Position numbers and translations under genes: made by a program. Of a DNA stretch of 64,000 nt, positions 16,745 through 17,869 are shown one piece after another. Below the pieces are notes generated by a model. That model saw only the letters and a list, made by a program, of their open reading frames with translations, had not been told where the DNA came from and ran no database searches. How positions within the stretch are numbered: position 1 is the stretch's first letter; each line of letters opens with the position of its first letter. This stretch comes from a virus, in the IMG/VR virus record IMGVR_UViG_3300026097_000017, positions 1 through 64,000 of that record; one strand, written 5' to 3'.

Positions 16745-17278
16745 TTACCTTTTTAGCATTACTCTCAATTCATTGTGTCCATTCTTCAAAGTGTGAACGG
16801 CATGATCATCTATTTTACATCTATCAAGATGTTTAGTCAACTTTTCTAACCACCACTGTGGCTCTTTTATAATTATATGAGTGTTACGTCCATCAGGAAG
16901 TTTCTTTTGTGCTGGGTAACACGCAATGACCATATAAGCATGGCGATCGATCAGTTTATCCATACCTTGAACAATCTCAGCAAGATACTCAAATTCTAGA
17001 TGTTCCATTACATCAAGACAGAACATCATATCATAAGATTGTGTTGGATATTGGTGATACTTTTCTACTGCTGGATCATATCCATCAACTTGGATATCAG
17101 GAAAATCTTCTTTAAGTTTATTAACAAGATTTCCATGAGCGCAACCATAATCTAGAATAGATTTGGGATTATGCTTGGTAACAAAGTTGAATGCATCTTC
17201 ATATTCATTTAAACGTCCAGCAAACATATTACGCTGATGCATCGATGATAACTGCACTTTATAGTTTTCTGAAATCAT
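16745..17278 (-). CDS. class I SAM-dependent methyltransferase
   Basis: ILDYGCAHG, GYDP, DVMEHL; start revised to MISEN because the track extension overlaps RNA genes. Confidence 0.85.
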   Translation of the reverse strand: MISENYKVQLSSMHQRNMFAGRLNEYEDAFNFVTKHNPKSILDYGCAHGNLVNKLKEDFPDIQVDGYDPAVEKYHQYPTQSYDMMFCLDVMEHLEFEYLAEIVQGMDKLIDRHAYMVIACYPAQKKLPDGRNTHIIIKEPQWWLEKLTKHLDRCKIDDHAVHTLKNGHNELRVMLKR

Positions 17279-17293
17279 TACATAATTTCCTAG

Positions 17294-17317
17294 TGGAGCC
17301 AAGGACAGGAATCGAAC
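17294..17317 (-). pseudogene. 3' remnant of a tRNA gene (T-loop, acceptor 3' strand, CCA)
   Basis: GTTCGATTCCTGTCCTTGGCTCCA with no 5' half upstream. Confidence 0.65.
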
Positions 17318-17331
17318 ATTCCAAAAATAAA

Positions 17332-17489
17332 TGGCGGAACGGGGGGAATCGGGTAACCCCCAAGGAGGTACTATCTGATGTACCTTTCCGAATGGACCTC
17401 CTACAACTCGCAACCTCGCTAAAGGTATGGACGCTATCCCTTTGAGTTTACCTTATCCCCCATCAGCGAGAGATATTCGGTCACGTTCC
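17332..17489 (-). ncRNA. 158-nt tRNA-like structured RNA (tRNA-Ser-like ends, no anticodon arm)
   Basis: GGAACG/CGTTCC acceptor plus GCCA, T-arm GGGGG-TT(ACC)CGATT-CCCCC, several internal helices. Confidence 0.75.
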
Positions 17490-17548
17490 TATCGGTGTTG
17501 CAATCACCGAACTCGGTTTGTCTAATGATTATTTCATTAGACTGAAAA

Positions 17549-17624
17549 TGGCTGGGATAGTAGGGCTCGAACCTACGACCGAAGGATTAACAGTCCTTTG
17601 CTCTACCAACTGAGCTATATCCCA
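17549..17624 (-). tRNA. tRNA-Asn(GTT)
   Basis: TGGGATATAGCTCAGTTGGTAGAGC-AAAGGA-CTGTTAA-TCCTT...GGTTCGAGCC...ATCCCAGCCA. Confidence 0.95.
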
Positions 17625-17630
17625 ATAAAT

Positions 17631-17707
17631 TGGCGTCCCCTGCAGGATTCGAACCTGCGACCCACAGCTTAGAAGGCTGTTGCTCTATCCAGCTGAGCTA
17701 AGGGGAC
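17631..17707 (-). tRNA. tRNA-Arg(TCT)
   Basis: GTCCCCTTAGCTCAGCTGGATAGAGC-AACAGC-CTTCTAA-GCTGT...GGTTCGAATCC...GGGGACGCCA. Confidence 0.95.
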
Positions 17708-17713
17708 AAAACT

Positions 17714-17812
17714 TTAAAACTTACAATCACTCTTTGCAATTAAATAGATAGCTGCTACAACGAGAACGCCACCAAGAAGAATCACATCAAGATAGTTTTG
17801 GGTGTATTCCAT
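17714..17812 (-). CDS. small single-TM peptide (32 aa)
   Basis: Read manually: MEYTQNYLDVILLGGVLVVAAIYLIAKSDCKF; GAGG RBS. Confidence 0.6.
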   Translation of the reverse strand: MEYTQNYLDVILLGGVLVVAAIYLIAKSDCKF

Positions 17813-17840: not shown

Positions 17841-17869
17841 ATTATAAGAGATACTCGCACAAAAAGCAA
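17841..17869 (-). promoter_or_regulatory. sigma70 promoter TTGCTT-N17-TATAAT driving the tRNA cluster
   Basis: Consensus boxes. Confidence 0.8.

Follow-up and report, generated by a model that had tools for sequence, protein, structure and literature searches.

A reduced manA-type RNA in a tRNA operon of an uncultured T4-like phage

The window analysed here, a 64,000-nt stretch of the IMG/VR virus record IMGVR_UViG_3300026097_000017, carries on its minus strand a structured RNA within a tRNA operon. The original prediction had read this element as an anticodon-less, tRNA-Ser-like RNA, and the letters it quoted were all found where it had placed them, at 17489-17332 of the minus strand. Judged by its sequence, minus strand 17510-17332 is a reduced, divergent manA RNA of ~180 nt, made up of a 5' hairpin (P0) and a 154-nt core. 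The conserved element exceeds the stretch flagged earlier, as P0 (17510-17492) lies outside those coordinates. The first description of manA, from 2010, was of a riboswitch candidate of 5' untranslated regions, found in marine metagenomes, in T4-like cyanophages and in two gamma-proteobacteria (PMC2864571); it has been an orphan riboswitch candidate since then. The family itself was thus already known; the ~60 relatives collected here appear to define a reduced manA branch that behaves as a stable-RNA gene in the tRNA arrays of uncultured marine T4-like phages.

A permissive Rfam scan matched minus-strand 17510-17332 to the manA RNA (RF01745) along model positions 1-192, its full length, with 49.8 bits and an E-value of 1.1e-11, and a scan of the entire 80-kb record returned this same manA match alone (E 2.7e-13). 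The original prediction had named a match to a known family as something that would count against its interpretation, and manA proved to be such a match. Two pattern scans of IMG/VR on GUGACYGAAUA...UAAGGU(A) yielded about 200 loci, of which about 94 are classical cyanophage manA (GGGAGUGACUGAAUAA...GGUGGUGC...) and the remainder form a variant group, with 22 distinct sequences close to the window RNA. The 23 close relatives were aligned with MAFFT on sequence alone (A2), and a covariance model, R1, was made from these relatives only; the window RNA scores 214.9 bits on it. A broader alignment of 64 distinct sequences was model-guided and hence leans towards the model. R1 retrieves classical cyanophage manA loci at E-values of 1e-5 to 1e-8, and variant RNAs of other subgroups clear the manA cut-off in Rfam at 55.9-65.7 bits, which the window's close subfamily does not. 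Because these intermediates pass the Rfam cut-off and R1 finds classical manA, membership is anchored from both sides, and we regard it as very probable that the window RNA belongs to the manA family in the evolutionary sense. Furthermore, the window carries both manA strings, as the junction GUGACCGAAUA (17484-17474) and UAAGGUA (17455-17449), and the strings GUGACYGAAUA and UAAGGU were invariant in 52 sequences. The 5' string GUGACCGAAUA, previously taken for a tRNA-Ser-like end, is this invariant manA junction signature and no remnant of a tRNA-Ser D-arm.

The likeness to manA extends to the P0 5' hairpin, a closing helix (P1) that abuts the last hairpin, both invariant strings, the P2b hairpin, the long P4 hairpin, and complementarity between the P2b and P4 loops and between the P4 and P5 loops (GGCAU/AUGCC and CUGUA/UACAG in classical manA). 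Both groups are found in marine T4-like phages, and their covariance-model matches are reciprocal. In contrast to classical manA, the core measures ~154 nt rather than ~170, a third small hairpin (P7, loop ACCA) is missing, and the two small hairpins that are present have (U)UAGCG loops where the classical counterparts have GUGGUG and GNRA. The variant also lies mostly within tRNA arrays, whereas classical manA follows a promoter directly and precedes metabolic genes. The parts of the element are as follows; all helices from P1 to P5 were assigned by covariation.

17492-17510, minus strand: P0, the 5' hairpin UCGGUG-AUUGCAA-CACCGA (RF01745 match, model R1 and covariation)
17336-17489, minus strand: core of the reduced manA-type RNA, 154 nt, closed by P1 (RF01745, R1 and covariation)
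17489-17484 with 17341-17336, minus strand: helix P1
17484-17474, minus strand: junction GUGACCGAAUA, an invariant string
17481-17480 with 17451-17450, minus strand: helix P2a
17473-17468 with 17461-17456, minus strand: helix P2b
17455-17449, minus strand: UAAGGUA, an invariant string
17448-17444 with 17409-17405, minus strand: helix P3
17439-17437 with 17431-17429, minus strand: helix P3a
17426-17423 with 17416-17413, minus strand: helix P3b
17402-17396 with 17369-17363, minus strand: helix P4
17361-17357 with 17346-17342, minus strand: helix P5
17466-17462 with 17379-17375, minus strand: loop pairing PK1, CUGAU of the P2b loop with AUCAG of the 26-nt P4 loop (covariation)
17384-17381 with 17355-17352, minus strand: probable loop pairing PK2, P4-loop GGUA with P5-loop UACC (complementarity in subgroups)
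17319-17335, minus strand: 3' tail, GCCA (17335-17332) followed by UUUAUUUUUGGAA (read from the sequence)

Covariation backs all nine helices (P0, P1, P2a, P2b, P3, P3a, P3b, P4 and P5). When the nine helices and the two loop pairings were scored on the A2 alignment, 95.3% of cells were paired and 33 of 53 pairs had compensatory changes; none of 500 shuffles did as well, and slid registers fell to 43-54% paired. The 64-sequence alignment gave 94.4% of cells paired, with compensatory changes in 38 of 43 pairs. All six pairs of P0 covary in both alignments. P1 is the helix that had been proposed as the acceptor stem GGAACG/CGUUCC, and it is real: among the 23 close relatives it is 100% paired, and four of its six pairs are altered on both sides. 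Its 3' strand directly follows P5, and both helices covary; with 6 bp in P1, 5 bp in P5 and no spacer, the two would form an 11-bp stack. The hairpin GGA-UAGCG-UCC was likewise drawn correctly by the original prediction, corresponding to P3a, which covaries in the relatives. Minimum-free-energy folding of the region gave z = -0.65 and a predicted structure that departs from the covariation-backed one. As thermodynamic folding is unremarkable by itself, the support for this RNA is comparative.

PK1 was the better supported of the loop pairings. Among the 23 close relatives its 5 bp are 100% paired and 3 of 5 pairs are compensatory, with the versions CAGAU/AUCUG, CUGAA/UUCAG, CUCAU/AUGAG, CACAU/AUGUG and CCGAA/UUCGG. 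Across 62 distinct sequences, more than 20 different duplexes of 4-6 bp occur, GGCAU/AUGCC of classical manA among them, and the best duplex averages 4.74 bp compared with 3.22 bp when loops were shuffled. PK2 does not vary within the close subfamily; its counterparts are AGGA/UCCU, AUAGG/CCUAU or UACUU/AAGUA in the other subgroups and CUGUA/UACAG in classical manA. Given a weak shuffle control (4.19 versus 3.77), we grade this pairing of the P4 and P5 loops as probable only. A third candidate, AUUCGG of the P4 loop with CCGAAU of the P5 loop, makes 6 bp in L198, L124 and L148 and was rejected, being lost in relatives that carry AUGUAG or AAGAUG.

Two neighbouring small hairpins have loops (17417-17422 and 17432-17436, minus strand) that read (U)UAGCG almost invariantly across the variant family. 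No covarying partner for these loops was found in the alignments of relatives, and they are candidate contact points for another molecule. Pairing of the UAGCG loops with CGCU of the P2b loop was considered and dropped: it showed no covariation, and L126 has CACACAU at that place yet keeps AGCG.

The remaining parts of the tRNA-Ser interpretation fared unevenly. The element resembles tRNAs and tRNA-like structures in that its closing helix is stacked on a terminal 3' hairpin and in its location in a tRNA operon; it differs from them in having no cloverleaf, D arm, anticodon arm, 7-nt T-loop or conserved CCA. Of the proposed T-arm, the stem GGGGG/CCCCC stands, since it is P5 and covaries, but the canonical UUCGAUU loop with an ACC insertion does not: the P5 loop is 10 nt long in the window and 8-13 nt, never 7, across 61 relatives, and as it probably pairs with the P4 loop it is better described as a pairing loop. 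The domain-closing helix CCGAAU/AUUCGG, the stem UCUCGCUGA/UUAGCGAGG and the variable-arm-like hairpin AGGUAC/GUACCU can be drawn in one sequence and found no backing beyond it, with no compensatory change in 23 relatives. Shuffling the columns equalled their pairing in 177 of 500 trials, and they compete with covarying helices; in each, one strand is an invariant family string (e.g., GACCGAAUA and GAAAGGUAC) while its partner drifts freely. The G discriminator and encoded CCA are present in the window and are not conserved, as NCCA occurs in 2 of 61 distinct relatives, namely the window and one classical manA.

These results bear on a rival reading, by which the RNA would be an anticodon-less tRNA mimic whose P1-P5 stack serves as an acceptor/T-arm minihelix, cut by RNase P, bearing CCA, and serylated or acting as a decoy for defence nucleases. 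The 11-bp stack comes near the 12 bp of a tRNA, the window sequence ends in GCCA, and the element fills a tRNA slot of a tRNA array. In addition, tRNA genes need not encode CCA, and both RNase P and the CCA-adding enzyme accept minihelices, which counts in favour of this idea. Against it stand the rarity of NCCA, the length and probable pairing of the P5 loop, and the missing covariation of the variable-arm hairpin and the domain-closing helix. As had been predicted, neither ARAGORN nor the Rfam tRNA model calls the element, and an Rfam scan to E 10 gave no tRNA-clan match at 17332-17510. Furthermore, most classical family members lie away from tRNAs, and those inspected start their transcripts at a promoter. 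We therefore consider a tRNA mimic very improbable. What holds of the earlier interpretation is a structured non-coding RNA that runs in the direction of the tRNA genes and may plausibly be freed as a separate molecule; mimicry of tRNA-Ser, serylation and a decoy role found no support. With the tRNA-mimic reading corrected, SerRS charging need not come first experimentally.

The window's CCA is best taken as a chance departure from a U-rich tract. After P1, close relatives read GCCUUUU..., GCUUUUAUUU... or GCACUUUAUUUU..., so that the consensus is GC plus a U-rich tract, and 21 of 23 have at least 5 U in the 8 nt after P1. The tract is a possible termination or 3'-end zone, with the terminator role predicted from its sequence and position; the scanner called no canonical terminator at 17332. 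On the 5' side, the element lies 59 nt 3' of tRNA-Asn(gtt), on the same strand as tRNA-Asn and tRNA-Arg(tct), both called by ARAGORN. We then counted context for 61 non-redundant variant RNAs and 92 classical manA, running ARAGORN on all loci. A same-strand tRNA lay within 300 nt of 35 of the 61 variant RNAs, compared with 10 of the 92 classical ones. It was upstream in 32 of 61, typically ending 25-31 nt before P1, that is, 4-5 nt before P0, and downstream in 15 of 61, where nine start within 50 nt. Several RNAs that have no close upstream tRNA start ~7 nt after TTGACA-N17-TATAAT promoters. Since promoters lie ~7 nt and tRNA ends 4-5 nt upstream, P0 would form the 5' terminus either of the transcript or of the piece that remains once the tRNA 3' end has been processed. 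Literature searches turned up no paper tying manA to tRNA clusters.

Classical cyanophage manA with such a promoter ~7 nt upstream were seen at L004, L006, L022, L024, L028, L030, L043 and L104. Phage tmRNA genes (Rfam alpha_tmRNA/tmRNA_permuted) were found near three variant loci (L125:921-1446, L191:1-591 and L094:1452-3384), ending 11 nt upstream of the manA-type RNA in L125 and lying at a distance of about 220 nt in L191 and about 1.6 kb in L094.

The same context bears on whether the RNA is a cis-regulatory, riboswitch-like leader, in which the folded domain would sense a ligand or condition and, by way of P1 and the U-tract, would govern either read-through into the methyltransferase gene, which begins 55 nt further on, or its translation. 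Points in favour are the initial classing of manA as a 5' untranslated-region riboswitch candidate (PMC2864571), the U-rich tract that directly follows P1 in most close relatives, the open reading frames (ORFs) with ribosome-binding sites that begin 9-57 nt downstream in most of them, and a complex, highly conserved core with invariant single-stranded strings. However, the first downstream ORFs are unrelated and share no common pathway: they encode a methyltransferase, gp44 clamp loader, IMPDH/GMP reductase, 2OG-Fe(II) oxygenase, cell-wall hydrolase or small uncharacterised proteins, or are replaced by tRNAs. In nine of the 61 RNAs a tRNA and no ORF comes within the next 50 nt, and 32 of 61 come directly after a tRNA. 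No alternative pairing suited to an expression platform was seen to be conserved in the alignments of relatives, a canonical terminator call was lacking, and literature searches and reviews gave no reported manA ligand. Family members moreover build defined oligomers in vitro (10.64898/2026.07.01.735769). Because the downstream genes are unrelated, a modular stable-RNA gene fits better than a switch with a regulon, and we judge a leader function unlikely. For the reduced branch as a whole, the position in tRNA arrays, some tmRNA neighbours and the unrelated downstream genes together argue against a gene switch.

We moderately favour, from the sequence evidence, a free-standing and possibly self-assembling RNA that would be released from the tRNA operon transcript. 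An early-type promoter would drive one unit comprising a small ORF, tRNA-Arg, tRNA-Asn and the manA-type RNA. Its 5' end would result from the cleavages by which the preceding tRNA acquires its mature 3' end. At the other end, transcription would terminate, or the RNA would be trimmed, in the U-rich tract that follows P1; in relatives, RNase P cleavage at the next tRNA is an alternative. The fold, as covariation shows, is a multi-helix junction with P1 stacked on P5, in which the P4 loop pairs with the P2b loop (5 bp) and probably with the P5 loop (4 bp). The action of the RNA would rest on its shape and on association with other RNAs, among them further copies of itself in oligomers; it would be neither a gene switch nor an amino-acid acceptor. 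That it acts free-standing rather than as a leader seems to us reasonably, though by no means overwhelmingly, probable.

The suggestion of RNA-RNA association comes from the manA structures solved by cryo-electron microscopy, which comprise a 60-subunit icosahedral cage, decamers and an octamer, assembled from pentamers with intermolecular kissing loops (10.64898/2026.07.01.735769). The kissing contacts are L5-L7' and L8-L9' in one manA RNA and L6-P6', L5-L7' and L3-L8' in another; the preprint reports in vitro structures only and nowhere mentions tRNA (10.64898/2026.07.01.735769). Its text gives no definition of the helix numbers, which we mapped by inference, taking P1 as the closing helix, P2 as the short one, P3 as the first hairpin, P4 as the sub-domain stem, P5-P7 as the small hairpins, P8 as the long hairpin and P9 as the last. 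The mapping fits in that it places GNRA on the sixth-helix loop and accounts for the classical pairs UGGU/ACCA, CUGUA/UACAG and GGCAU/AUGCC. In this numbering PK1 would be L3-L8 and PK2 would be L8-L9, the counterparts of intermolecular manA contacts; as both paired loop sets map to contacts in manA assemblies, action through RNA-RNA association is proposed here. Self-association of the window RNA in the manner of the solved members is a tentative expectation, to which we give a little less than an even chance.

Several points weigh against this account. The Rfam score of 49.8 bits falls under the RF01745 gathering cut-off of 55.2, and the three-hairpin sub-domain of manA (GUGGUG, GNRA, ACCA) is represented by only two hairpins, with 18 model positions deleted in the Rfam alignment. 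With P7 missing, the L5-L7' interface of both solved pentamers is impossible here, and any assembly of the window RNA, as read from its sequence, must differ from the solved members. The manA assemblies are known in vitro only, for other family members, and from a preprint, and covariation fits intramolecular and intermolecular loop pairing alike. An ORF starts 9-57 nt downstream in the window and in many close relatives, which also fits a leader function. Moreover, metatranscriptome contigs of relatives continue for 40-65 nt beyond the point where P1 ends on its 3' side.

These contigs, at least 90% identical to 17329-17518, came from four metatranscriptome runs of three studies (salt marsh, marine). 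Their differences from the window match known relatives, e.g., a compensatory U-A to C-G change in P3b (17423/17416). They give a weak hint that the family is transcribed, as such libraries can contain DNA. When contigs of the four runs were compared with 17200-17800, 17329-17518 and the tRNAs were covered and the flanks were not, with an apparent stop at 17329. Neither the missing flank cover nor this stop was used as evidence, because flanks vary among relatives and contigs show no ends, strand or level.

A bolder form of the free-standing RNA is that the tRNA machinery (RNase P, 3' trimming and perhaps CCA addition) excises it by way of P1-P5, and that multimers held by L3-L8 and L8-L9 form an RNA-only particle whose exposed, invariant UAGCG loops bind or sequester a target from translation or the tRNA world. 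We regard this as an improbable proposal. If it is true, manA could no longer carry its cis-regulatory label, and the cages seen in vitro would gain a place in biology. In any case, the window RNA offers a compact object of about 155-180 nt for asking whether cage-forming loop contacts serve in vivo, and why.

The T4 stable RNAs C and D (species 1 and 2 RNAs), to which the original prediction had pointed, were compared as possible homologues. Like the window RNA, they are small, non-tRNA stable-RNA genes that lie directly 3' of tRNA genes in a T4-type genome (rnaD and rnaC directly follow tRNA-Arg in T4), and all are presumably freed by tRNA-processing enzymes. This shared placement is what favours homology. 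With filters off, R1 reached at best 3.8 bits, on the opposite strand, at L322 1800-2300 (T4 rnaC/rnaD), and Rfam gave no manA match on the T4 genes, with only a weak tRNA-Sec-like match for rnaC. An alignment of rnaC from T4, PG7, AS6 and COW86c indicated that rnaC itself derives from a tRNA, since its T-loop, UUCGAAU, has 7 nt and it carries a long arm that covaries, whereas the window RNA has the manA fold. The likeness is thus positional only, homology was found with neither R1 nor the Rfam manA model, and we attach next to no probability to it. T4 rnaC (L322:1909-2047, minus strand) and its Karamvirus relatives (L323-L325) have a canonical T arm, the long covarying arm and a 5' extension domain, and the PG7 record labels 95 nt of its rnaC relative as tRNA-Met. 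GUAGCG, found twice in T4 rnaC, was likened to the UAGCG loops and discarded as chance, since the strings sit in a covarying stem in the alignment with PG7, AS6 and COW86c.

GOLLD and ROOL often adjoin tRNA genes in phages. According to the cryo-electron microscopy study PMC12286853, the large ornate RNAs GOLLD, ROOL and OLE are structured RNAs of phages or bacteria that form RNA-only homo-oligomers. Unlike the window RNA, they are several hundred nt long and unrelated in sequence, and no Rfam match to them was obtained in the window.

Beyond IMG/VR, relatives were scarce. A blastn search in distant mode with 17250-17560 found no match among 50,697 phage records, from which it follows that cultured phages have no close copy. 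A pattern scan of genome contigs returned 120 loci, nearly all chance matches. One locus, L252:4262-4402 (minus strand) on a contig of an uncultured Saccharibacteria metagenome-assembled genome, gave a weak R1 match (19.7 bits, E 6e-4), the only one among 80 listed bacterial and archaeal loci.

The order along the minus strand is a terminator-like hairpin, a promoter-like site, a small ORF, tRNA-Arg, tRNA-Asn, a spacer hairpin, the RNA and a methyltransferase gene, with the following neighbours of the element.

17910-17886, minus strand: terminator-like hairpin of the preceding gene (terminator/promoter scanner)
17841-17869, minus strand: putative sigma-70-like operon promoter, TTGCTT (17869-17864), a 17-nt spacer and TATAAT (17846-17841), read from the sequence
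17714-17812, minus strand: 32-codon ORF MEYTQNYLDVILLGGVLVVAAIYLIAKSDCKF with a GAGG ribosome-binding site, first cistron of the unit, read from the sequence
17631-17707, minus strand: tRNA-Arg, anticodon tct (ARAGORN; Rfam tRNA 71.2 bits)
17549-17624, minus strand: tRNA-Asn, anticodon gtt, with CCA encoded (ARAGORN; Rfam tRNA 74.1 bits)
17520-17542, minus strand: extra, perfect 9-bp spacer hairpin GUCUAAUGA-AAUAA-UCAUUAGAC between tRNA-Asn and P0, read from the sequence
16745-17278, minus strand: S-adenosylmethionine-dependent methyltransferase gene, 177 aa, next downstream (Pfam Methyltransf_23, 4.1e-09; PHROG methyltransferase, 1.1e-21)

The promoter site was unlisted by the scanner because the latter demands 4 of 6 matches in the -35 hexamer. 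The spacer hairpin appears to be an insertion peculiar to this phage, as relatives have just 4-5 nt there, and is perhaps a processing or stabilising element. The source is an uncultured marine T4-like myovirus, with a gp43 polymerase, a gp41-type helicase, a gp46-type nuclease and NrdAB; no sequenced phage has a polymerase more than 54% identical to this gp43, and cyanomyoviruses come nearest. The product of the 32-codon ORF is hydrophobic and looks like a small single-pass membrane peptide. Past the U-tract (17290-17318, minus strand), GGAAU-GUUCG-AUUCC followed by ...GGCUCCA looks like a decayed tRNA's T-arm and 3' end; ARAGORN is silent on this segment, and the relatives L159 and L018 have another, common hairpin there.

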